43,452 nucleotides of DNA, taken from the IMG/VR virus record IMGVR_UViG_3300042348_001111, positions 1 through 43,452 of that record. One strand, written 5' to 3'. The DNA comes from a virus. Its lineage: Duplodnaviria > Heunggongvirae > Uroviricota > Caudoviricetes. Within the stretch, counting starts at the first letter, position 1. Each line of letters begins with the position of its first letter. Under the pieces are notes generated by a model. It saw only the letters and a list, made by a program, of their open reading frames with translations. It was not told where the DNA came from and did no database searches. Below are positions 3,001 to 36,019 of this stretch, piece after piece. The position numbers and the translations under genes are program-made.

Positions 3001-6000
3001 AGTTCGACTAAACGATCAAGATGTTTTTGTAACGCCTGCTGAGCATAGGTGTTCAATTGGTTACGAAGTGTAACCATTACATCTTCAGGCAGTTCTTCAA
3101 ACTTAGTACCTGCAAAAGCAAAATCACGCAAACCTGTGTTGGTGTCGTTGGTGACCAGTTCTGCGTTTGCCTGAAAAAAATCTGGTATCTTGCCAATAAA
3201 GTTGTATGCACGCAAGTCTGTGCTATCAACTTCTGCCTTTGTCACATCATCTTTTTGATGTGTAGCGTTAAACTTCAAAATCAGACTGTGCTTTTCTCCT
3301 GCGTCAAAGACCTGTTTTCTTTCAAGTCTTTTGTTGTACTCACGCTGAATACGATTGTATTCCTGACGCACAGCATTTGTAAGTGTGTCTGTTATTTTAA
3401 GGTGTCCATCTTTTGTTTTTAGCATGCCTTTATTATCAGCATACTGCTCATATAATGCAGAAATCAAAAAGTTAGTCTGCGATGACTCAAGCTGTGAAAA
3501 ACTTCTCAGGTAAGTTTGTATCTCAACAAGTTTGTCTTTTCCTTCAGCGTCTTTGATAACTTGTTTGTGAGAGGTTCTGTTCAGAAAAGAAAGAAGGTGT
3601 GTGATATACATTGACTTGCTGTCAATGTTTTTAAAACTTTTACCAGGTTTGAACTTGCCGTCAAACACCTGGTTTACTCCACCAAACATTGCAACGCGGA
3701 AGTTGCGTAAGAACAATTCCTGCTTTGCTTTGAAAGTAGCGTTGCCTTCTGGATCAAGCAAAACACCCATTGCTGGATTGTCTTTGAACCAGTCGTTAAC
3801 ATACTCTTCAAAGTAAGGATCCTCTCTTAGCGTTTCTTCCAATCCTTTTCTTCTTAATGTTTGCGCCAAACGTAGCGCTGGCGTGTAACTCACAAACCGG
3901 TAACGCGACTTGTTTTCTGAGTCTTTAACTGTACTCTGTATACCTTGTGGGTCATATTTGACCATGTAAGCAGCTGCTCTGCGTAAAATAACATTGAAAC
4001 GATCTACTGTCAGTTCAGCATTTTTGTCTTTAGTTATATACCTTGCAAAAGCGTCATGATTATTTTGGTTGTTGACAGCTTCTTTAATAATTTGTAAGAT
4101 GCTTAAAAAAAAGTCTTTTTCAAAAAAGATTCCTTCAGCAATCATCTGTTCATGACTGTTGTAATGATCTACAACTTCTTTGCTAAGCTGCGTGTTGTCA
4201 TGCACTACATTGTTTTGCGTCTTGTCTATTGCAAGCAATGATAAACGTATCAGAGACTTGGGCACGTTAATACCTACAGCATTCATAAGCGTGTGCAACT
4301 CACTTGTGAGTTCTTCAAGCTTTTCACCCTGGTTATCACTGTCTAAAATAAAATTGCTTTCATAAATTGTTCTTGATAGAGTACTCAAGTCCTGTGCAGC
4401 TTTAAGATATGCTTCATCTTTTGCAGAAGAAGCGTGCTTGGTCTTAATGCTTGTAATAATCTGTGTCTTGCGGAGGTTGATATCCTGAAACAAAACCTGG
4501 TCCTTTATAGTATATGAACTGGTTTCTGTACCCATATCCATACCTGATGGGTCAGTTTTTTTATTGGTATAAACAGTAGTAGTGATAAAGTCAAGCTCAG
4601 TAGTATCCAGCGCATCAATCATCATATTGTAAAGTTGCTGATTGCTTTGGGGTCTACCGCTGCTGTCCATGTTTGTGAACTTGTGCAGCTTGTCGTAAAT
4701 GTTGTCAAGATCATCTGCCAGCAAGTTGTTTCCATCATAGCGTGCAGTATTGGCAACAACCTTAATATGATCAATGATATTGTCTACTTCAACATCTGAT
4801 GTAACGCTCATAAGTACACCAAACATCTGGTTACCGTTTGCAAGACGTGGCAGCGTAATGCCCAGTCTTTCATCTACACGGTTATACTTTAGCAGTGCCA
4901 AAAACCTTCTGATTTCTTTGTTGACTCCTTCAAGTTTGTTGTACTGATTTAGTCCACTGTCAAAATCTGCAGACTCAGTTTCCTGGTCGTTAGAACCAGT
5001 TTCATCATCTTCGTTATACACAGGAGGATTTTCATCTGTGAGTAGCTCTTCTAATTTTTCTCCTGTAAGCGTGTCTTCTTGTTCTGGTTTGCTTTCTATA
5101 AGCGTATTAATCTTTTCAAAGTTTGCTTTGACAAGTTTCATCAAGGTCTTTTTAGACTCTTGACCATTAGTGTTGTCTACAAAGCTGTCTCCTGTACCGT
5201 CATTGCGCTTTACTAAATTAGGACGTACCAAATTATCATAGTCAGGATTACCTGTGTTGTTCAAGTCAGGCAGTACTTCATTCCGCATGCGTGCACCCAA
5301 CATAAAACGATAGTTCTTCCAGGTATTGCCTAAAACTTCAAGAATCTGATCACGTTTATCAGGATGATTTGCAGTAAGTCTATCAAGGTTGTACACTTTG
5401 GCCAAAATAAATTTAGCTATTCTGTCAAAGTTTTGCTCAAACGTCTGCTTGTTATTATATCTTTTGAGCATGTAGTAAGTCACCATATTGACCAACTCAT
5501 TTTGCTGTTCTGCAGAATTAAGACTTCCAATTCTGTCTGTAATTCCTACACCGCCAGGCAAATTTTCAATTTCAACCAGACCTTCAATAATCTCATATGC
5601 TGCCTGACCATCATATATGTCAGAAGCCATTACAGAAGAACTTGCGTAGTAACCGCTGCTTACGCGTGAGTACATTCTGTCAATTTCATTGCTCTTACCT
5701 GTAAACATTTCAATCAAACGTTTGAGCAACTGCATCAGGTCACCAAGAATACCTTTAGGTTTCTTGTTGTCTGTCATATATTTTTGAAAACCATCTGCAA
5801 GAATTTCTTCTGCCTGAAGTTGTTTCATGCGCGTCTTGTCATAGACATAGTTACGCTTGCGTGCAAACTCTTTGAGTGACTCTTCTGTAAACTTAGAAGC
5901 ATGGACTTTCATCCCAGATACCAAGTCTACAAGACCTGCGCGATATGCATCTGTCATCAAATATCTAAACACACCGTGAAAGGCCTCATGGTAAACAGTA

Positions 6001-24361: not shown

Positions 24362-27300
24362 CTTGAGCTGTTGATGTGCTTGCTATTTGTGAGTTTTAAT
24401 ACCATCTTTTTGTCACCACTGACGTTTTTGCGCAGGATGATATTGTTGCCATAGTGACGAAACTTCTTACGTTCAAGTGGTGACTTAAAGTAATCAATGT
24501 AGTCAGGGTTAATAATCTTCTGAACACCAGCACATTCTGTATTCCACATTGGTTCACGCGCAGTTGTAAATTCACCGCGATCTTTTGTGACATCCCAAAA
24601 CTGATTAAACCTATACTTGTTTTCTTCTTTTGAAAATAAAATCTCTATACCGCTTGTAGAAACTTGTGGATAGTTGACCAATTCTAAAGGAGCATTCTTG
24701 CCTTTAATTCTTAATTTAAGAAGTCCTGATATTTGCTCAGAGTTATACAATACAGCCCTGTCAAAATTTTCGTCAAGAATATGATGAAAATCTTTTCCGT
24801 CATTGTAAAACTTGTAAACATCCAAGGTGTATTCTACACTTCTAAGTGTGGTAACGGCATTTGGAGTTATCACAGGATATTCAATTTCCCATGCATAGTT
24901 TGTACCATAGTAGTTACAATAACTATCCCACCGGTCATTGTGCCTCCAAATAGCATTTTCTTTTATTGAAAGAAAGTGTCTGAAAGAAGGCATCAGCAAT
25001 GTTGGTTTCCAATCATGAAAACTTATCCATTGTTTGTTTTTAGGATCATAACTTATTGTCCAATGACAAGGTTTAAAAACAGCCGGATTGTCAAAACTGC
25101 AAAAAGTCTTTGTAGTAACAGGGTTGTTAGGTGAGCCTGATATTGTAACGTAATAGGGAACTCCTGATGGATCATCAAAAAGAAGATCGTTTCTCAATGG
25201 TGCATAGTCACGCTTAGTGAAATACACAATCTCATACTGTGAATCATAAATTGCCTGTACGCCAATTCCAACAACTGGATTGTCATAATATGGATACTCA
25301 GGATATACTTTTAAAAACTTGCTTGGAAGATTTTCATTAAACCAAAATTTCATACCATTGCGTGAAATCTCAGTAATTCCTCCAGCATACTGCATAATCT
25401 TACCAGACTGCTGTGAAACAAAAAATAAACCGTGAGGTGTATTGACTGCTGCTCTAGATGATATGCTACTTGCATAACCAATAGTGTCATCTGCATTGAC
25501 AAGAGCTTGCATGTTTCCTTGAAACAGACCTCCATCACCAATAGTCAGTTTGACACCACCGGTTGTCTGAAGCTGATCTACACCTACAAACATTACAGGT
25601 TCAGCATCTTCAAAAAGAATCATAGCGCCTGTAGCATTAAGATTCTTAATTGTGCTTATCTTTCCTGAGAAGTCTTTGTAGTTAAGCGCAAGATAATTTC
25701 TCCAATTATCTCGTCTAAGTCCAGACTGTTGTTGGAGGGAGTATATTCCTCTATTAGGGTAATATTCAAACTGTGTGGTGTATAATCTAGGGTCGTAGTC
25801 GCGGGGGAGTATAGAAGCCCAGGATGCAAAGTTGTTGAAAAGTTTTGATGCACTGAGAGATAAGTCATACTTAAAAAAGATTGGTTTTGTAATAAGATCA
25901 GATCTGAACATTGTGCTCAAATCATTAAAGGAGTTTCCATAAACATCGTAGAACTTTTCATAAGATTCTTGACCATAGTCGCGATACGCCATGTTCAATT
26001 CACTTTCTGTAAAGAAATCTCTTACGCCATTGTGAAACAAATACGCATAACTATTTCTTACTGTCAAAACCCCTGTTATAGAACTTGGACGATCTAAGCG
26101 ATGAAAATCACTTGGAGTATTAAGGTCAATTATTGGTGACGTAAATACACCATTTGGAAAAATGCTTATGTTAAAGTCCTGTGCATCATACTTTTCAAAA
26201 TTAACCCAATAACGTGGTGCAGGACCATTAACATAGTTGCGATAATCATACTCAGTCCTGTTTGGCATGTCATACATCCAGGTGTTAAAGAACATGTAAG
26301 GATTCTTTTCTGTGTAACGATTTATATACACATCTCCACCAAAAATTGGACCCGATGTAAATCTTTGCTCTGTTTCACTAGAAGTTAAAAACACACACGA
26401 TCCCGTAGGAAGTTGAACAACTGAGCTTAACTGACCATACTGATTTTGAAAGTCAACCTTTATAGCACCATAATATGCAACAGTAGTTGTAGTAATTTCA
26501 TTTTTTAAAGGGTCACTATAAGTGACACCACCATCTTTGATTCTGTGTTTTGTATTGTCTTGCCCGGTTACAGGATCCGACACAGTTGAAGACAGTTTTA
26601 ACGCCACATACTTGTTGCGATTAAGATTATTAATCCTGTGTGTTGCGTCAAAGTCATGTAAACCTGACCCTATGTATTTAGCAGATGATGGTATAATTTG
26701 ACGTCTAATAGACTTCTGCAATCCTCCTGGCACAGAACTATTACTCACATTAGAAAAGGTAGAGTAAAATCCATGGGAATTATACTGAAGCATGTATTGA
26801 CGTTCTTTAGAAATATTTCTTAAAACTTCCAATACCTGATCAATACCTTGACCAAAATAATAAAGACTACTTGTTGCTAAAACAGCAACACCAGCTGCAT
26901 TAACACCAATGCTAACAGGATTTTGAAATGCTCCTGCAATAATTGCAGGTAATACTGTAGCACTTCCAGACTCTGTTGAAGATGCGGTAGTTACACCTAT
27001 TCCACCAAGTTCACCTGAATAAGTTGTTTTGCCAAGAGCATTTATCAGTGCAATACCCGCTCCAACAACTGCTGCAATAGCAAAAGCACCATCTGAAAGC
27101 AAAACATGTTTTGGGTGCTTGTCAGGGAATTCATAGCGACCTGTTACTGTACCTCTCTCTTCTGTGTAAAGTTTGATATGATTTCCACCTAAGTAAGGTT
27201 TCACAAAGTTTGTTTCAACAGAGTGAAAAGAAAAAATATCTCTCTTATAGTTAGAAAGTTTTGAAGCTGACTCAATAGTGCCAGGATTAGCGGTACCGCT

Positions 27301-29013
27301 ATCCAAAACAGAATAGTCGTCTGTCAAAAAGTTATCTGGACGCAAATCATTGTAAGGATAATTCTGAATGAGACCTTTTCTTGAATTGTTACCGGCAAGA
27401 TTATACTCCAGCATGTTGTTGAACAAACCTTTTGCAACAATGGTGCGGTTGCCCTCACGCGAACCTCTCAGTATCTCATAACCAATAATGTCTGGTATTG
27501 GTTGATTATTTTCATTTACAGGATGAGCAATATTGGAAAATTCAACACCGAGAATAATAATTTTTGTACCTCCTTGGTTGTGAATGTGAATAGTTTCATT
27601 AGAAGGCATTTTGTGATGCCTAATGGGTTTACCACACAATGTGTCCCAAACAGGTTCTTTATCATCAGGATAACGTTCTGTAGACTCCCAGTATGACATA
27701 TCACCTTTGGCAATAATGACGCCTCCATCAGGTGTAGTACCAGTTGCGTTGTACTTGGTAGAAGTATCATACACCTGCCAAGCTTTATTTTGAGAAGATG
27801 TAAGCAAGTCTGGACCAGAAACAGTAGTGGTATCTACTGAATTGGAAGCACGTCCTGGAATATGAAAAGATGCAGAACGCGCACCAGTTCTGTATATCCA
27901 ACGTATAAAAAATGGGTACACTTCATCACGCATGTAACCAACTGTGTTTCCACCACCCCAATAGTAGTCAGCAGGATACTCAGCAGCTACCCATGAAGCT
28001 CTAATTTGATTTGCTAAAGGCTGATAGTTAAAATATGGTTGTGTGGTGACACCGGTTCTAATAAGGTAATCATTTACCTCAAACATTTTTTCACTCTTTT
28101 CATATACCACAGATTTAAGTGGTATCTGAGCAATGTCAATTGTAGGAAGACTTTGCAAAAATAAATCAAGTGTAACTTTGCTTTGTCGTATAGAGTAGTA
28201 TCCAATCTTTTTAGCAATAGTCTGTTGATTAATAACAGCTATTACTACAAGTTCGTACTCATCAAAATTTTGATCAAGATTTGTAACTGAAATATCAATA
28301 GAACCACCAATGCCTGAGTGATCCCAAATAGCTTGTGGATTACTAGGAATAGAATAGTCTGTAAGACGTACTCCATTTTCAGAATAAGCTACACATGCAA
28401 TGTAACTACCATTGTTTAGCTGACCTGCACCCTGTGCTTTACTAACCTTCACACAAGGTTGTGTAACCAAAGGATGAAGTCTTAACGCGTCACAATCTAA
28501 CTCTTCTGAATAGAGTGGCTCATAACAATTAGGATCAGAATTTGCATCTCCTATTACTTTATATGGCACCCTGTCAAGATTCAGAACACGATCAGGGTTT
28601 AAATTGTCTGCAAAATATACAGAATCAGTGCCGTCATAGTTGCCTTTGACTACTGCAGATATTAGGTGTGTTTTTTTAAAACCCAAACATGGGTCGTTCA
28701 CTACAAGAGTGTAAGTACAGTTGCTCTCATCAAAGATGCCTATTTCTGAAGCAGTGTCATTACCAGATAAAATTACCCACCGCGTCTGAGAAATATGCGC
28801 AAAGCCAAGGATTGTGTAAGGAACTGTAACGCAAATCTGGTTAGAAGGTTCATTTCCAATAGAACCCGACTCTCCATAATGAGAATTGTTAATAGCATTT
28901 ACAGCATTAAGCCAAACTCCTTCTGACATATAAATGTCAGTATAGTCTTTGACCATGCCTTTGTGAAAGCTATTGGTCTCAGTTACACTGCTTTTGCTAA
29001 AATTTTCGCTCAT
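24358..29013 (-). CDS. Muzzle / tail stabilisation protein (P22 gp10-like, crAss-like), 1551 aa
   Basis: Beta-propeller-like N- and C-terminal regions ([14 protein letters not shown]; [20 protein letters not shown]; [12 protein letters not shown]), plus size and position after the ring genes. Confidence 0.8.
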
Positions 29014-29384
29014 TGTTCTTTGATGTTGTAGTTCTTAGATTTCAACACCTTGTACACCTCTTCTGTAAGATATCCTATAAGCCATGCTGTAGATTCTTCA
29101 TCTTTTATTTCAATGTCAGATGTCATCTTAACAGCAAGATGAAACACTTCGTGGGCAATAAGATTGTGAGAAAGTTGTTCTTCAACAAGGACTATGTAAT
29201 ACTCATGTCCTTTGGAAGTAAACAACTCAAAAACAACACCATCTGCGTCCATGACATCTATCATGCCGCTGCACTTCTTATCAAGTTCAATCTGCATGTC
29301 TTCCATGTTTTTTACTACACATAGCATTGCATGCCTGCTATAAATTGAAACAGGTATCTTGCGTTTAAATATCTTACTAGCCAT
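29010..29384 (-). CDS. Small HExxH zincin-like protein (124 aa)
   Basis: IAHEVFH followed by DEESTAWLIGYL. ATGA overlap with the muzzle gene. Confidence 0.6.
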   Translation of the reverse strand: MASKIFKRKIPVSIYSRHAMLCVVKNMEDMQIELDKKCSGMIDVMDADGVVFELFTSKGHEYYIVLVEEQLSHNLIAHEVFHLAVKMTSDIEIKDEESTAWLIGYLTEEVYKVLKSKNYNIKEQ

Positions 29385-29388
29385 TGTA

Positions 29389-30483
29389 TTAACTTTTAAA
29401 CATGTTGTAGTACTTATGGTATTGAGCCTTGCGGTTCATTTCCCACACTTGCTGAAGCTCTCTAAAATCTGGAGTGTTAATAAATGACAACGCATTGTTT
29501 CTTGCAGCCCTGAGTCTTTGCTCTACTAATTGCATAAAATTTGCCACATTTTCACCACTCATGTATAAATTTTCATAAATGCGTTGCTTTAGTGCATATT
29601 CATAAAATTCATTGACAATTGGATGATCCATTACCATAAGATTTCCCTCATCGTCTTCCATTAAAGACTGATAGTTTACATAGACGACTCCTTCATCAAA
29701 ATTGGTGACCAAAAACCCATTCTTTATAACAGCTGTGTGCCAGTCATTACTATTGAGATTAATGCAGTCTGGTGATACACTTTTGGATTTCTGTATGCGC
29801 ATTGGTGTAAGCACATTGTAGGTATAACGCCTTCCTGGCGTATTGTATGCCATAATGTGATTTCCATCTTGGTCCTGTTCAATAACTGCAGAATTAACTC
29901 CTGAAAAAACAGGTCTTGACGCCATGATAATAATCTTGGCATTAGTAATGTTTACAGGAGCGTCAGATATAATTTGAAGCAACGATGTTGTTGGCGTAAG
30001 TAAATTAAAAGAAAGCAGAGTGTCATCAGGACCAATCGCCTGAACAATAAGATTCTGAGAGTCTAAACTGTGATTGATATTGTTTACGCCAGGTGTAAGA
30101 GTCTGTATAATAGTCTGCTGCTGAACCACGTTTCCAAGTGCATAAAATGCAGCTTCTTGACCCATTGCAGCACCTTCCAACAATCCTTCCGTATAAGTTT
30201 TTGTCTTATTAGGATGTTCTAAATCATGAACATTACGACCTTCGCAAAGCAGTGCAAAATTGAGCACATAAAAATCATTAGGTAGTTTACCCTTGCCTTT
30301 ATGTATTTCAATTGCTTTAGAACGCGAAAGATTAACTTTAAGACCAAGTTCATAATTTACCCTTATAGCAACTTTTAACAGTTGTTGAGCATCAATCATT
30401 CCCTCAAGGTCAAAACCACGCAAGTCAATTTTGACACTATCAAGAAGATCGTCAAAATTTCTATATTGTACCTCTGTCATCAT
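29389..30483 (-). CDS. Tail ring / head-tail adaptor protein with inserted small beta domain (364 aa)
   Basis: Segments GKGKLPNDF, FDEGVVYVNYQSLMEDDEGNLMVMDHP and YEYALKQRIYENL resemble crAss-like ring proteins; sits before the muzzle gene. Confidence 0.7.
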   Translation of the reverse strand: MMTEVQYRNFDDLLDSVKIDLRGFDLEGMIDAQQLLKVAIRVNYELGLKVNLSRSKAIEIHKGKGKLPNDFYVLNFALLCEGRNVHDLEHPNKTKTYTEGLLEGAAMGQEAAFYALGNVVQQQTIIQTLTPGVNNINHSLDSQNLIVQAIGPDDTLLSFNLLTPTTSLLQIISDAPVNITNAKIIIMASRPVFSGVNSAVIEQDQDGNHIMAYNTPGRRYTYNVLTPMRIQKSKSVSPDCINLNSNDWHTAVIKNGFLVTNFDEGVVYVNYQSLMEDDEGNLMVMDHPIVNEFYEYALKQRIYENLYMSGENVANFMQLVEQRLRAARNNALSFINTPDFRELQQVWEMNRKAQYHKYYNMFKS

Positions 30484-30495
30484 TGCTTAACTTGT

Positions 30496-31167
30496 TTATC
30501 GTGCCGAGTGTCTGTTATCTTGCTGAGTATCTTGAGGTATTTGAAGCATTACTCCAAGGTCTCTCAAAACAAGTTGTTCAATTTCTGAAAACAAAAATTC
30601 AGGAACATTGATAGTCTTATCCTGAATTGAGGTACAATCGTCAGAAGTTGTACAATTATACTTGCTAATATTACCTTCAAATACACCTTCTATACGTATT
30701 GCGTCCCACTCAAGATTTGGAAAGTAGAGATACCCATTAAGAAACCAGTAGTACTTCTTTTTGTTGTACTTAAAGGTTTTTTGGCGACTCATCTGCTCAT
30801 AAGTAGTAGGAAAAGTAGGAGTGAGTTCCTCAGAAAAATCAATAGAAGTCACTGACCTAATCAAAGGTCCATAGTAACCTTCGATCATTGCTGGAAGCTT
30901 TTCTTTGGTGCGTTTGATGTAACAGTCTGATGTAATACAATGACAATCAGATTGAGCCCGGTCAACTTCTATAAGTTCAACAAAGTCAAGCACTTGAAAT
31001 ACAGAGTTAAACTTCATAATGCGGTTCAGGTTATCCTGGCGACGCATTAAAAGTTTTGCATGCTTCATGATCAACGAATACAAAAACCTGTCGGTCATAA
31101 AAGCGTCTTGCTTTACAGCCTTTATAAGGTTGCGTATTCTAGATACAGCTTCTGATATAGTAATCAT
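30496..31167 (-). CDS. Tail ring / tubular protein (P22 gp4-like), 223 aa
   Basis: IKRTKEKLPAMIEG..IRSVTSID..KKYYWFLNGYLYF is typical of crAss-like ring proteins; synteny supports it. Confidence 0.7.
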   Translation of the reverse strand: MITISEAVSRIRNLIKAVKQDAFMTDRFLYSLIMKHAKLLMRRQDNLNRIMKFNSVFQVLDFVELIEVDRAQSDCHCITSDCYIKRTKEKLPAMIEGYYGPLIRSVTSIDFSEELTPTFPTTYEQMSRQKTFKYNKKKYYWFLNGYLYFPNLEWDAIRIEGVFEGNISKYNCTTSDDCTSIQDKTINVPEFLFSEIEQLVLRDLGVMLQIPQDTQQDNRHSAR

Positions 31168-31816: not shown

Positions 31817-33166
31817 TTAGACACTATAAACAAATTCGGATATCAAACCCTTCTTAGCTTCATGCAGGTGCAATAACGCCGATCGCTTGTTACCTACAAA
31901 CTTGTTGTGATAGTGATAATAGTCTGAGTTTGTCAGTGCAGGTATAATCCTGGAAACAAACCCATTTTCTTCATTTTCAGTCACAAATTCTTTAGTCTTA
32001 CGCCCATGGTAGTGTCCGGTGTAAAGCATGCGATGCTTAGAAGCACCCCACTGCTGAGGATACTCCACAGCATAGACCAATGGGTTATTTTTAGCTGTTA
32101 CGTCCCCATGCTCAAAACAAAGCATGTTGTCCCCGTAAGTAATAACCTTTCGTTCTGCATAATCAATATTGAAGACTGTATTAGGCCACTTTCTAAAAGT
32201 CTGTGAAAGCGCGTGCAACAGGTGAAAGGAAGAAAGACGATCGTGATTTCCTGAGATAAAGACCACCTCAAGATTATCACAAAATTGTTTAACATGAGAA
32301 ATCGTCCATGCCAGCGCATCAAAAGCTTTTAAGTATGCTTCTGTGGCCATTTCTGAGTTTTCAACCGGTGTGCCTTTGGTAGTAGTTCCAGAAAAGGTGT
32401 CCATATTAAGTGTATCAGGACCAATGATCATGATAACCTTTTCCATCGTATAATTTTTAAAACCCTTGGCAACAAGGTAATCAATAGAGTTTTTTAAGAT
32501 ATCACCCATATCACCGTTACCAACCTTGCCAAAATGTAGATCTTGTAAAGAAAGAACCCCGCAAACTTTTTCTGACGACGTAGCGTTAATCCAGAAAGCT
32601 GCGGGGTCAATAGGTTCAAACTGAGGTAGTTTGTATTCTGAGAGCAGTTCTAAGAAGTTATGCTGAACTTGCTCTGCCTGGGGGATTCTGGTCACAAGCG
32701 CTGAAACCAACCACTTGGTACCTTTTTCTTTATTCCAATATTGCGATAACTTCCATTTAGTAGTGTCTATTTTAAGAATCTCAATAATTTCCTCTGCACT
32801 GCGAGGTTCTGTAGCAAAGATGCCAGTAATCTTAGAAGTGCCACTTTCTAAATCCTCATGTACTTCTACCACAGAGTTAGACTTGACTTCAGCTTTATGA
32901 TATCGCATATCACCTGTAATCCCCAACTGCTCCTCCATTTCGTAAAGCTGTTCTTCTACAGAAAGCTCTGATTTAACGCCGGATAGCTTGTTTTGCACCA
33001 TTTTCAACATAATGTCATCCATCTGTTGACCTACATTGTTGACAACAGAAATGATTTCTGCTCTAATCTTTTGGTACTGGCTTAAAGGAATACCCAAGCG
33101 TTCAGCTTCTGTATCAGCTGATCTTTTGCGTTTTAGACTGTTATAGACTGCTTCAATGATGTTCAT
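31817..33166 (-). CDS. Calcineurin-like metallophosphoesterase with N-terminal HTH-like segment (449 aa)
   Basis: Ordered metal-binding motifs DLHFG, GPDTLNMD, GNHD, HGD, GHYH. Confidence 0.85.
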   Translation of the reverse strand: MNIIEAVYNSLKRKRSADTEAERLGIPLSQYQKIRAEIISVVNNVGQQMDDIMLKMVQNKLSGVKSELSVEEQLYEMEEQLGITGDMRYHKAEVKSNSVVEVHEDLESGTSKITGIFATEPRSAEEIIEILKIDTTKWKLSQYWNKEKGTKWLVSALVTRIPQAEQVQHNFLELLSEYKLPQFEPIDPAAFWINATSSEKVCGVLSLQDLHFGKVGNGDMGDILKNSIDYLVAKGFKNYTMEKVIMIIGPDTLNMDTFSGTTTKGTPVENSEMATEAYLKAFDALAWTISHVKQFCDNLEVVFISGNHDRLSSFHLLHALSQTFRKWPNTVFNIDYAERKVITYGDNMLCFEHGDVTAKNNPLVYAVEYPQQWGASKHRMLYTGHYHGRKTKEFVTENEENGFVSRIIPALTNSDYYHYHNKFVGNKRSALLHLHEAKKGLISEFVYSV

Positions 33167-33339: not shown

Positions 33340-33585
33340 TTAAGGAGCACACTCAACTTTATAGGCAAGCGCTGGGACTTCAGTAGATTCGTTTGTAGCA
33401 CATATTTTTTTTACCTTAACATCATAACTAGTACCACACACAATTCCTTGAGTAATTACAATTGGAAGAGTAACACTAGCAGGATATGTCTGACAAATCC
33501 ATGTGGGTGATGTATCAGGTTTATGACAAACTTGAAAATCAACTGCACCTGTTCCCTTGGTGAAATTTATATTTAACTGTGGCAT
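33340..33585 (-). CDS. Small FN3-like protein lacking beta-strand A (81 aa)
   Basis: QLNINF (B), DFQVCHK (C), CGTSYDVKVKKIC (E-F, with the FN3 T-x-Y signature); 5 Cys. Confidence 0.6.
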   Translation of the reverse strand: MPQLNINFTKGTGAVDFQVCHKPDTSPTWICQTYPASVTLPIVITQGIVCGTSYDVKVKKICATNESTEVPALAYKVECAP

Positions 33586-33597
33586 ATCGTTTTATGT

Positions 33598-34146
33598 TTA
33601 AGAAACTGTGGCTACAAGATTTGTAACAGCTGCGCAAGCTGGTTGAGCTGGAATGGTAAAAGAACCATTGCATGTCAATGTTTGAGTACAACCTACAGCC
33701 TGAATTGTAGCAGTATACGTATAAGTTGTATCCCATTCAAGATCTCTTGTAAATGTATAAGGACCCGCTGTGTTAACGTTTTCTAAATGTGCACTTACTA
33801 AACCTGGCGCAAAGATTTGGACAGTTGTATATATTACATCTTGTCCACCAATGGCCGGTAACGTAAAAGTCACATCATCTAACGTAATGGAAGTTGTAAT
33901 TGTAGGACACACCAGTTTTGCTGCACAAACATCAGCTCCGTCTGTCGGACCACCAACAGCACACTGTGTAACAATTTGATACAGATAAACCGTATTATTG
34001 ACTGCTGTAGTATCACTGTAACTGCTTGCCGTAGCATTGAGAGTTGCAATTGTAGAAAAACTAGTACTAGAAGTTTTTCTTTGAACAAGCTGGCCTGTAA
34101 CATTTGCACCTGATGCAGGTGTCCAACTAAGATTAATTGTTGCCAT
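33598..34146 (-). CDS. Two-domain FN3-like protein (182 aa): starts at strand B and ends with a spare strand A
   Basis: Likely start MATINLSW at 34146 rather than 34194. Contains NNTVYLYQIVTQC and LEWDTTYTYT FN3 signatures and ends ACAAVTNLVATVS. Confidence 0.7.
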   Translation of the reverse strand: MATINLSWTPASGANVTGQLVQRKTSSTSFSTIATLNATASSYSDTTAVNNTVYLYQIVTQCAVGGPTDGADVCAAKLVCPTITTSITLDDVTFTLPAIGGQDVIYTTVQIFAPGLVSAHLENVNTAGPYTFTRDLEWDTTYTYTATIQAVGCTQTLTCNGSFTIPAQPACAAVTNLVATVS

Positions 34147-34154
34147 TATTAAAA

Positions 34155-34430
34155 TTATTGAGGAGTTGCTGTAAGATTTGTGGCTGCCAAACAACTTGTT
34201 GGAAGTTGTCCATCACAACACTGACATATTTTTGTAGCAAGAAGTTGCAAAATTTGGTTAAAATCCATACCTGTAGTAACATTTATACAGGGAATATTTG
34301 GACCAGTGTATCTTACACAAGGTCCAGTAATTACTTCAGGACACGCTTCACCAACACATGCAGGTGGTAATGGAATATCTACAGGCGGCAGCTGTTGCTG
34401 GCAAGGTTGACAATTTTGATTATTAGACAT
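34155..34430 (-). CDS. Cys-rich adaptor-like protein (91 aa) ending in an FN3 strand A
   Basis: CVRYTGPNIPCINV..LQLLATKIC is paralogous to the N-terminus of the 521-aa gene; ends SCLAATNLTATPQ; 10 Cys. Confidence 0.65.
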   Translation of the reverse strand: MSNNQNCQPCQQQLPPVDIPLPPACVGEACPEVITGPCVRYTGPNIPCINVTTGMDFNQILQLLATKICQCCDGQLPTSCLAATNLTATPQ

Positions 34431-34453: not shown

Positions 34454-36019
34454 TTAACAGGAAGTAACAGATGGGTTTAGTACTACTGATGTAGAACTCA
34501 AAGACACTACACACGAAAATGTTTTTAGTTCTGGAGTACAATGATTACTTGTGCATTCTTTAAAGCGTTCTCCCACATACGTGTATGTGCCAGAAGATTG
34601 ACCTGTAGGAATTATAATTGAAACGTCATCTGTAGCAGGACTTGGGCAATTACCAGTAACAGCAAATCTTAGCACAGCAGTAATTGCAGGACCAGTGTTT
34701 ACAACAACTTGTCCTGTTGCAGGACTATAAAGTGTAATAACAGCTGCACGTTGAGTAGCAGGAAGATTCTCATTATTACAAGGATATGTTATCTGAGCTG
34801 TTGTAGTTTGATCAGCAACACCCAACCTATACAAAATGGAGTTTAATCTAACCGGTCCAATAGCGTAACCATTTTCTGAATTGCCACAAGTGTAAACGGC
34901 ATGTACTTCAGCAATATAAAACTTGGAAGTGTTTCCAACATTTGTAAAAACATGACTTGTTGCTGGATGATTTACTGTAGCTGTTGCAACAGGGCTACCT
35001 ACTTTTGCAATACCATTCCACTCTGTAATTGTAACTACATATGCCATAGGATCTTCATAAGGCCCTGTTAAAGGATGATTCCAAGTAACAGTACACCCTG
35101 TTGAAGTAAGAGTAGTTATTTGTACATTGCTTGGAGCAATAGTTACGCACTCAGTTACTCCGGTTACAATTAAACTTTGCACTGCACAACGCATGTCGCA
35201 AATGGTAAGCCACAGGTTATTGAGAGAATCTGAAACTGTAACCGGTGTTGCAACCCAACCTGGCAAAGCAGACATCAATAATTCTTGATCGCACAACTGA
35301 GACGCTTGGTCAAGATCTGGGCACTCTTTGTTAATAGCAGCTGTTAGTGAAGCAAGACTTCCTAGCAAAGACTGTAATTGACAAAATTTTTGTTCAAAGT
35401 TAGAAAATGCTGTTGCGATCGGAAGTGTAAGACCATACGAAGTACCACTAGCACATTGTGTAGTGACAGTAATTGTAGGAGGTGTAGCTTCACTTAATTC
35501 TTCAAGTGTGTTTTCAACAGTTGTAACTCTTGTGGTTAAAGAGGTAAGCGCTGACTGCACACTTGCAATTGTAGTGAGAATTGTACAAATTCTATCTGCA
35601 AGATATGCACTGTAAGCATTTGGAAGTAACTGAGTTATCTGATCTCCATTTTGCGTAAAGTAAAGACATGCAGGCAATGCTATTGGACTAGCAGGAGAAG
35701 AAGTTGTTGTACCACCACAACAGTTATCTTCAATATTACAAACCTTATTAATCAACTCTTGCAATACTTCCAAAAGTGTATTAGGAGTTTGTGAGCTTTG
35801 ATCAACTATGCATTTGAAATCAAGAGATGTCACATCAATTACACCTATCGTGCTTTCACAAAGCAACTCTGCAAGTTGATGCACAACACTGTCAATAGAA
35901 TCTCCTTGGCAAACATTAATGCAAGGAATGTCTGGACCATTCCAAATAACGCATGTAGATGCCACAGGTATGCATGCATCCTTTGCGTTTATACTAGTAT
36001 TGCTATTAACAGGTATCAT
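34454..36019 (-). CDS. Cys-rich fibre-like protein: N-terminal Cys-rich domain, coiled coil, intact FN3 and C-terminal beta domain (521 aa)
   Basis: 26 Cys by manual count. Heptad segment IASVQSALTSLTTRVTTVENTLEEL. FN3 CVTIAPSNVQITTLTSTGCTVTW..FYIAEVHAVYTC (~34860-35150). Confidence 0.7.
   Translation of the reverse strand: MIPVNSNTSINAKDACIPVASTCVIWNGPDIPCINVCQGDSIDSVVHQLAELLCESTIGVIDVTSLDFKCIVDQSSQTPNTLLEVLQELINKVCNIEDNCCGGTTTSSPASPIALPACLYFTQNGDQITQLLPNAYSAYLADRICTILTTIASVQSALTSLTTRVTTVENTLEELSEATPPTITVTTQCASGTSYGLTLPIATAFSNFEQKFCQLQSLLGSLASLTAAINKECPDLDQASQLCDQELLMSALPGWVATPVTVSDSLNNLWLTICDMRCAVQSLIVTGVTECVTIAPSNVQITTLTSTGCTVTWNHPLTGPYEDPMAYVVTITEWNGIAKVGSPVATATVNHPATSHVFTNVGNTSKFYIAEVHAVYTCGNSENGYAIGPVRLNSILYRLGVADQTTTAQITYPCNNENLPATQRAAVITLYSPATGQVVVNTGPAITAVLRFAVTGNCPSPATDDVSIIIPTGQSSGTYTYVGERFKECTSNHCTPELKTFSCVVSLSSTSVVLNPSVTSC

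Follow-up and report, generated by a model that had tools for sequence, protein, structure and literature searches.

Gene organization of the locus

The window analysed here is a stretch of DNA of 43,452 nucleotides, and its source record is a virus genome of 121,380 bp (96% complete, 38.8% GC). The Pfam families found around the locus are Crass_capsid (547 aa), CrAss_Ring_2 (223 aa) and CrAss_Ring_1 (364 aa). Their presence identifies the source as an uncultured crassvirus and places the genes of interest inside its structural module. The genes are located on the minus strand, after the capsid-proximal genes, in the order 521 aa, 91 aa, 182 aa and 81 aa. The features of the locus, all on the minus strand, are as follows.

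34454..36019, minus strand: 521-aa gene, with an N-terminal domain of the 91-aa type and an unsplit FN3 domain (residues 295-382)
34155..34430, minus strand: 91-aa donor-only protein, with a Cys-rich N-terminal domain followed directly by the strand-A tail
34158..34193, minus strand: donor tail 1, residues 80-91 of the 91-aa protein, CLAATNLTATPQ, with the pre-A Cys and FN3 strand A
34147..34157, minus strand: junction 1, a TAA stop and an AT-rich spacer of 8 nt, with the acceptor in another frame
33598..34146, minus strand: 182-aa acceptor-plus-donor unit, with FN3-1 lacking strand A (residues 1-78), domain 2 (79-165) and the tail (171-182)
33961..33963, minus strand: Cys62 of the 182-aa protein, at the end of strand F, whose proposed partner is Cys80 of the 91-aa protein
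33601..33636, minus strand: donor tail 2, residues 171-182 of the 182-aa protein, CAAVTNLVATVS
33586..33600, minus strand: junction 2, reading TAA, ACA, TAA, AAC, GAT in the same frame, with two TAA stops
33340..33585, minus strand: 81-aa acceptor-only protein (proposed cap), a diverged FN3 domain without strand A, with Cys62 at the end of strand F (33400-33402)

The 91-aa protein ends in ..SCLAATNLTATPQ before its stop codon. The 182-aa protein starts with MATINLSWTP, which corresponds to strand B, and ends in ..ACAAVTNLVATVS; the N-terminus of the 81-aa protein, MPQLNINFT, also corresponds to strand B. The spacer of junction 2 is 12 nt long and would be read through as S*T*NDM. An initial annotation of this DNA had described these chain ends and starts, the TAA codons, the Cys residues and the unsplit template in the 521-aa gene, and on re-reading every one of these statements was correct. 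The Cys residues it had named are present in IVTQC (Cys62 of the 182-aa protein), in VKKIC (Cys62 of the 81-aa protein) and in AVYTC of the 521-aa protein.

The C-terminal tails are referred to below as plugs, and the FN3 domains that begin at strand B as sockets. Motifs of these two types occur in this genome only in the 91-aa, 182-aa and 81-aa genes. The N-terminal domain of the 91-aa protein is homologous to residues 19-66 of the 521-aa protein (E 7e-8), and the two are paralogous. In the alignment of the 91-aa family (A2) this domain is conserved, the middle section varies in length from 0 to about 470 aa, and the tail always comes last.

Nucleotide and protein searches of GenBank phages revealed no relative, the sole match being a generic FN3 domain in a Salmonella jumbo phage. 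A protein atlas search with the 91-aa protein gave unnamed viral clusters only. The PDB was searched by sequence, using the 521-aa protein and profiles A2 and A1; this returned only TSP1-like matches, which come from inserts in the relatives, and nothing that ties the anchor domain to the head-fibre or tail-fibre protein of crAss001. The placement of the 91-aa, 182-aa and 81-aa proteins in the virion is predicted, as the phage is uncultured and is known here from its genes.

FN3 domains divided in the A-B turn

The Pfam fn3 family is matched by the 521-aa protein only (residues 295-382, E 6.6e-6), while the 182-aa and 81-aa proteins give no match. The unsplit domain of the 521-aa protein provides an internal template, with both Cys residues in one chain (ECVTIAPSNV..AVYTC). 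An exhaustive search with the 182-aa protein yielded 3,280 matches, in which residues 3-90 match tandem FN3 arrays with E-values down to 1e-138. In the unsplit repeats strand A precedes the matched part, for example as PAAPTGLSAAALSSS before QINLTWTD, and across the stretch that is split here the unsplit relatives read PAAPTGLSAAALSSSQINLTW.

A profile was constructed from 300 unsplit FN3 repeats, each lengthened by 18 residues upstream, and residues 3-90 of the 182-aa protein score 68 bits on it. Chimeras were made by placing the last 18 residues of the upstream protein before the acceptor. The 182-type acceptors alone are aligned from profile position 20-24, mostly 22, which corresponds to protein residue 2-5. 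The chimeras of tail and acceptor are aligned contiguously from profile position 4-9, with a gain of +3 to +15 bits, and shuffled tails, used as a control, gain about +2 bits. When the 91-aa tail is put before the N-terminus of the 182-aa protein, the start of the alignment moves from position 22 to position 4. The 81-aa family is too diverged for the FN3 profile, and acceptors of this type have scores near zero on it. After joining, the length of the A-B turn differs by no more than 1 residue from that of ordinary FN3 domains. At the level of sequence, the gain in profile score together with the recurrence of the cut is far beyond chance.

Conservation of the cut

Related loci were collected by IMG/VR searches and by look-ups of contigs that bear homologues. 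The same cut is found at 25 junctions from about 12 distinct related loci with 35-60% identity, all of which keep the split in the A-B turn. In one of them the upstream protein ends in ..ECPAPTNLTATVS and the next begins MATINLSWTPVND; in another ..APACPAPTNLSAVVS is followed by MAQLTVNFTP. Both junctions also persist in two assemblies of 97% identity that come from other metagenomes. The full-length homologues of the 182-aa protein form nine 50%-identity clusters, all of 177-189 aa, and in 9/9 of these the pattern M-A-x-I-x-L-x-W-T-P runs from residue 1 and the tail stands at the end. The strand B start and the tail end are likewise present in all of the twelve full-length homologues. In the alignment of the 81-aa family (A3) the start and the Cys are kept. 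The cut, the tail motif and both Cys residues are thus retained in all relatives, which supports the initial annotation; the genes are truly separate, and the FN3 domain is cut in the A-B turn.

The spacers at the 25 junctions range from -1 to 85 nt and consist of unrelated AT-rich sequence. The relative frames 0, 1 and 2 occur at 10, 7 and 8 of the junctions, respectively, and 18 of the 25 spacers contain a stop in the frame of the acceptor. No fused homologue was found among the relatives; a longer protein carrying domain 2 was also not found, in a search that is weak as evidence. None of the marks of recoding (a conserved relation of the frames, a slippery site in an overlap between the genes, or one leaky stop on its own) was seen at these junctions.

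It could be supposed that the three ORFs are one gene, which is fused by frameshifting or readthrough, or that an assembly error or recent decay has broken it. Junction 2 is indeed in frame, and some phage structural proteins are said to gain Ig-like domains by programmed frameshifts. However, spacer length and frame vary freely, acceptor-frame stops at 18 of the 25 junctions bar fusion through one shift, TAA ends 97 of the 138 ORFs of the genome, independent assemblies agree and every homologue has its own ATG at strand B, so that the probability of this reading is negligible. Reassignment of TAA was rejected on the same stop-codon usage, TAA being the main stop codon. The conserved cut, the free frames and spacers, the use of TAA and the lack of a fused homologue exclude recoding, sequencing error and pseudogenes or recent decay, and the earlier judgement that recoding is unlikely, made from the two TAA codons of junction 2 and the lack of a slippery heptamer at junction 1, is strengthened.

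Selection on the donor tail

The invariant positions in the alignment of 13 sequences of the 182-aa family include W8, T9, P10, C62, C80, C159, C171 and A179. Averaged over each segment, the majority fraction reaches 0.66 in the tail, compared with 0.45 in domain 2 and 0.69 in FN3-1. The alternating L-x-A-x-V pattern and the strand-A profile of the tail have been kept after long divergence. Among pairwise identical tail residues, only 31% share the codon, which indicates that the constraint acts at the peptide level. As judged from these alignments, it is the protein, and not a DNA linker, that is constrained. A conserved DNA recombination linker was considered and rejected, since the spacers bear no relation to one another and the codons of the tail differ by synonymous changes.

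Structure models

The AF2 model calculated with the 182-aa alignment has a mean pLDDT of 93.9. In this model FN3-1 consists of six strands, B to G (residues 2-7, 16-24, 31-36, 42-48, 54-62 and 73-75), and the seven-strand sandwich (A-B-E / C-C'-F-G) is not completed by FN3-1 within one chain. Domain 2 is a complete FN3-like domain and has seven strands. Residues 166-182 are in a coil conformation, with the pLDDT dropping from 83 to 61. Folding back of the tail within its own chain, which had been named as an outcome that would speak against the initial annotation, is therefore not what the monomer model presents. Extended tandem FN3 pairs from the PDB are matched by this model with a TM-score of up to 0.60 (query-normalised). 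This extended geometry puts the tail two domain lengths from the place where strand A of FN3-1 must begin.

The confident folding of FN3-1 without strand A by AF2 is a point against the need for a plug, as the socket may be stable when it is empty.

Junction 2 was modelled as a read-through product, with TAA taken as Q, so that the chain consists of the tail, a 5-residue linker and the 81-aa protein, and with the alignment of the 81-aa family. Since MAFFT had put the 81-aa family onto FN3-1 in the block alignment (A4), only the tail and the 81-aa protein were folded (A6). The mean pLDDT of the model is 89.8. The tail segment TNLVATVSQ forms a strand (pLDDT about 91) that is hairpinned to PQLNINFT, the strand B. 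Superposition of model residues 6-103 on Tencon residues 1-94 gave a VIA-align Z of 12.4 and an rmsd of 2.4 A, and comparison with a tenascin domain gave a Z of 13.1. The proposal that the two parts make up one domain is thus borne out at the level of the model, in which the tail and the 81-aa protein form a complete seven-strand FN3 (Z 12-13, rmsd about 2 A). The model shows the 81-aa protein as a predicted FN3 domain without strand A, into which the upstream tail fits as strand A. It is important to note that a single chain with an artificial linker shows compatibility in modelling, not binding. A complex prediction for the 91-aa, 182-aa and 81-aa proteins (alignments A2, A1 and A3, three chains at once, with the 182-aa protein as the partner) was also calculated; a control with chain 1 replaced scored equally high, so that the score is not specific and counts neither for binding nor against it.

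Cysteine residues and the putative disulfide

The domains of this family have one Cys located 4-5 residues before strand A and a second one where strand F ends or strand G starts. Domain 2 of the 182-aa protein (C80 and C159) and the FN3 domain of the 521-aa protein carry the pair in one chain. The split domains have the pair divided over two chains, with the pre-A Cys on the donor tail and the other on the acceptor, and this arrangement is conserved in all members: the tail Cys is present in 9/9 members of the 91-aa family, and Cys62 of the 182-aa family is invariant in 13/13 sequences. Ordinary FN3 arrays do not contain these Cys residues.

The N-terminus of an FN3 domain is at the same pole as the F-G loop. 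This proximity makes an intersubunit disulfide plausible. Virions of crAss001 are known to contain structural disulfides (PMC10172136). From the conservation of Cys only, the joint between donor and acceptor is probably disulfide-locked. As to the pairing put forward in the initial annotation, the conserved positions of both Cys in all relatives agree with it, while for the disulfide lock itself Cys conservation is the sole support.

The Cys residues could also have another role, and the assembly takes place in a reducing cytoplasm.

Proposed assembly of the appendage

The arrangement described above allows us to propose that strand complementation in trans, probably locked by disulfides, builds a virion appendage with an anchor, a stalk and a cap, a reading that we consider fairly probable. 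The three genes would encode successive segments of one bead-like crassvirus appendage whose joints are nicked FN3 domains. At a joint, the last 11-12 residues of the upstream protein, comprising the Cys and then strand A, would be inserted in trans next to strand B of the protein that follows. The downstream polypeptide starts in the A-B turn, and the inserted tail would complete its seven-strand sandwich. The 91-aa protein would contribute the anchoring domain and the first plug, the 182-aa protein a socket, a complete FN3 domain and a second plug, and the 81-aa protein only a socket, at which the chain would end. After oxidation of the particle, a disulfide between the subunits would probably link the pre-A Cys to the Cys that the acceptor carries at its F-G end, making the joint covalent.

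In the lineage of the window the first protein of the chain is always donor-only and the last always acceptor-only, and the order donor-only, donor-plus-acceptor, acceptor-only is conserved, in agreement with the initial annotation. With such ends, the plugs equal the sockets in number only if the pairing occurs in trans. The asymmetry of the ends, the coil conformation of the tail and the strict adjacency of plug gene and socket gene favour trans pairing along the gene order. Homologues of the 521-aa protein in other lineages (L013, L018) also end in a donor tail, which is followed by an acceptor gene.

The tails of junctions 1 and 2 share one generic motif, so that the order of pairing is suggested by gene order alone. 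The complete 119-kb genome of a relative from another lineage (G001) contains two clear plugs and four sockets, besides a 103-aa protein with a longer, two-strand-like tail; the first socket-bearing unit has no donor anywhere in that genome. In another relative (L006) a MATINLSW protein has no tail upstream. These orphan sockets suggest that an empty socket is tolerated or filled otherwise, or that the units self-associate.

A different explanation, which we regard as unlikely, is that the truncated FN3 domain is stable alone and the tails serve something else, the split-like appearance being due to descent from a once-fused gene. The pLDDT above 93 with which AF2 folds FN3-1 in the absence of strand A fits this explanation, as do the socket of G001 without a donor and the acceptor-like start in L006 without an upstream tail. 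The tails might then bind a different component of the virion or the host, or act as a flexible linker. However, the tail keeps its strand-A profile and its L-x-A-x-V pattern under selection at the peptide level, every tail is located directly upstream of a socket gene, and the pre-A Cys and the post-F Cys are kept on both sides of every joint.

It could also be suggested that the plug and socket are promiscuous. The 182-type unit would then form a disulfide-locked homopolymer, that is, a crassvirus filament of variable length, covalently stapled and pilus-like. We regard this as distinctly unlikely, although it would explain the orphan socket of G001 and would, if true, provide a viral counterpart of the type V pili of the Bacteroidota hosts of the phage. 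A closely related and still less probable variant is that the 182-aa unit accepts the tail of its own kind and homopolymerises between the anchor and the cap into a pilus-like filament of variable length. The tails of the 91-aa and 182-aa proteins are nearly one motif, the first donor-plus-acceptor unit of G001 has no other donor available, and type V pili use the same logic of anchor, stalk and tip (PMC13655056). However, relatives extend the chain with different genes in series (189 -> 103 -> 335 aa; 177 -> 178 -> 255 aa), and self-association is without support. The idea that the 182-aa protein polymerises with itself into a pilus-like filament, which formed part of the initial annotation, gained no support; the relatives lengthen the chain with extra, different genes.

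Closure in cis was considered as well. In this arrangement the tail of the 182-aa protein would complete its own FN3-1, giving a circular permutation, and the tail of the 91-aa protein would plug directly into the 81-aa protein. The counts of plugs and sockets would balance here too, and the N- and C-termini of any FN3 domain come together at the A-B turn. However, the monomer model places no seventh strand on FN3-1, with residues 166-182 left as coil; the two domains are like extended tandem FN3 pairs, and domain 2 is followed by only about 6 linker residues; and the adjacency of 91 -> 182 and of 182 -> 81 is conserved. This makes cis closure very improbable, and pairing in trans along the gene order is the arrangement that we retain.

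If this proposal is true, phages build fibres from separately encoded beads that are joined by nicked FN3 domains, and a joint of about 12 residues lets the distal modules be swapped gene by gene. It would explain the many small FN3-like ORFs in viromes that look truncated and have no Pfam match, and it would allow the binding partners among neighbouring virion proteins to be predicted by a rule. The joint would also represent a compact natural pair of tag and catcher, possibly self-locking by disulfide. The logic of donor strands would thereby be carried from bacterial pili to virus particles, and it may be a general principle of assembly that has been glimpsed only once in a crystal structure, that of Tuc2009.

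Comparison with known systems

Fraser et al. (in 2006) reportedly described Ig-like domains that are appended to phage structural proteins by programmed frameshift. The similarity to the present locus lies in FN3 or Ig-like modules at the ends of virion genes, but the product of the frameshift is a fused polypeptide, and fusion is excluded here. The nozzle of Pseudomonas phage A1002 is split over two genes and rebuilt by beta-strand complementation (PMC13730344). The split part in that case is a nozzle beta-propeller and platform, not a chain of FN3 beads. A split FN3 monobody refolds from two fragments, with a Tm of 45 C compared with 78 C for the unsplit protein (PMC11666773). Such engineered domains are artificial and much less stable, their fragments are held non-covalently, and the cut is made in the C-D loop. 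Their lower stability provides a rationale for a natural disulfide lock.

In the chaperone-usher pili (Fim/Pap) an incomplete Ig-like fold is completed by a strand of the next subunit, as proposed here. However, what these pilins lack is the C-terminal G strand, its replacement comes from an N-terminal extension, and assembly depends on a periplasmic chaperone and an usher. At the crassvirus locus the N-terminal strand A is missing and the donor would be a C-terminal tail, so the strand pattern is a different one. Among the structural genes scanned around the locus, no chaperone or usher gene was seen.

The type V pili of Bacteroidia (FimA/Mfa1) are closer in topology, since in them a C-terminal donor strand replaces the N-terminal strand of the acceptor (PMC13655056). 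Judged by sequence and by the single-chain read-through model, the crassvirus locus would fit this topology. Both systems would have a donor anchor, a donor-plus-acceptor stalk and an acceptor-only tip in common, and the hosts of crassviruses belong to the same phylum. The type V pilins are lipoproteins with a transthyretin-like two-domain fold, whose N-terminal strand is removed by a protease. In the crassvirus proteins, in contrast, the strand is absent genetically, the fold is FN3, and the product would be a defined hetero-chain and not a proven polymer; the acceptors start directly from strand B, without a signal peptide or lipobox.

No description of serial split-FN3 joints in a phage fibre was found in the literature, beyond the precedents of Tuc2009 and A1002. 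The initial annotation had known of nothing comparable in phages; this stands for the serial arrangement, but a related case has been solved. In Lactococcus phage Tuc2009, the crystal structure shows that a 25-residue C-terminal hairpin of BppU completes the sheet of BppA domain 2, and the composite of BppU and BppA resembles a titin domain (PMC4742702). Searches with profiles A1 and A2 and with the 521-aa protein found no PDB chain that would indicate homology to BppU or BppA. This is nevertheless the closest solved precedent, and the only solved one from a phage that was found. In the adhesion device of Tuc2009 a C-terminal extension completes the beta-sheet of a separately encoded protein, giving an Ig-like or titin-like domain, and a joint of this type is predicted here from the comparison of relatives and the single-chain read-through model. 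The arrangement in Tuc2009 is a two-strand hairpin at a single joint, without a Cys lock, in the baseplate of a siphophage, while in the crassvirus a single strand A would be donated to an acceptor whose N-terminus lies exactly at strand B, and the joints would occur in series.

Anchor and repeat domains of the donor-only proteins

The donor-only protein of 91 amino acid residues (window 34158-34430, minus strand) contains ten Cys residues, and its C-x2-C and C-x4-C spacings are conserved in the family. Possibly the anchor domain binds metal or is held together by a disulfide knot. In relatives the anchor domain is followed by one to several thrombospondin type-1 (TSP1)-like repeats, with the motif C-V-V-S-x-W-S-x-W..TRTRT, and then by the tail. 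Donor-only genes with such repeats are found at the following related loci:

L003:2302-3966
L004:2505-3965
L012:3295-4974
L015:4092-4973
L021:1134-1820, recorded as Pfam TSP1_spondin

The TSP1 chains of complement C9 and F-spondin are weak matches of the profile built from the donor-only family. To our knowledge, TSP1 repeats are unusual in phages.

Plugs and sockets in relatives

The complete 119-kb relative genome G001 (the record of locus L014) has, at 26712-30605, four socket-type starts, which lack strand A, and two clear plug tails, together with a longer tail on a protein of 103 residues. Its first donor-plus-acceptor unit has 189 residues, and a donor for the socket of this unit is absent genome-wide. 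In G001 the homologue of the 521-residue protein has 407 residues; its own C-terminus is a plug, and a socket gene follows. Loci L013 and L018 show this arrangement too. The extension of the 103-residue unit (L013:5577-5885 and the L014 equivalent), CAPASGVSATS(S/L)FTVDFNY(P/T)LT, is longer than the other tails and looks like two strands. At one L018 plug-socket junction (5559-5646), the 85-nt spacer carries a perfect inverted repeat, GATAGGGTG..CACCCTATC, possibly a terminator or regulatory hairpin.

Neighbouring genes and known systems

A metallophosphoesterase gene lies within the structural module, flanked by fibre genes and ring genes, a position kept in all relatives of the window's lineage:

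window 31817-33166, minus strand, 449 residues, PHROG 'DNA repair exonuclease' (E 7e-47), SbcD/Mre11-like motifs GNHD and GHYH

In the 521-residue protein (window 34454-36019, minus strand), a heptad-like stretch at about residues 140-175 (..SVQSALTSLTTRVTTVENTLEELSE..), downstream of the Cys-rich N-domain, hints at a fibre in which two or three chains form a coiled coil. Such a fibre would recall the pair of head fibres in crAss001, which dock by their N-termini. The hairpin of lactococcal phage Tuc2009 is better matched by the extension of the 103-residue unit, because of its two-strand-like character, than by the single-strand tails.
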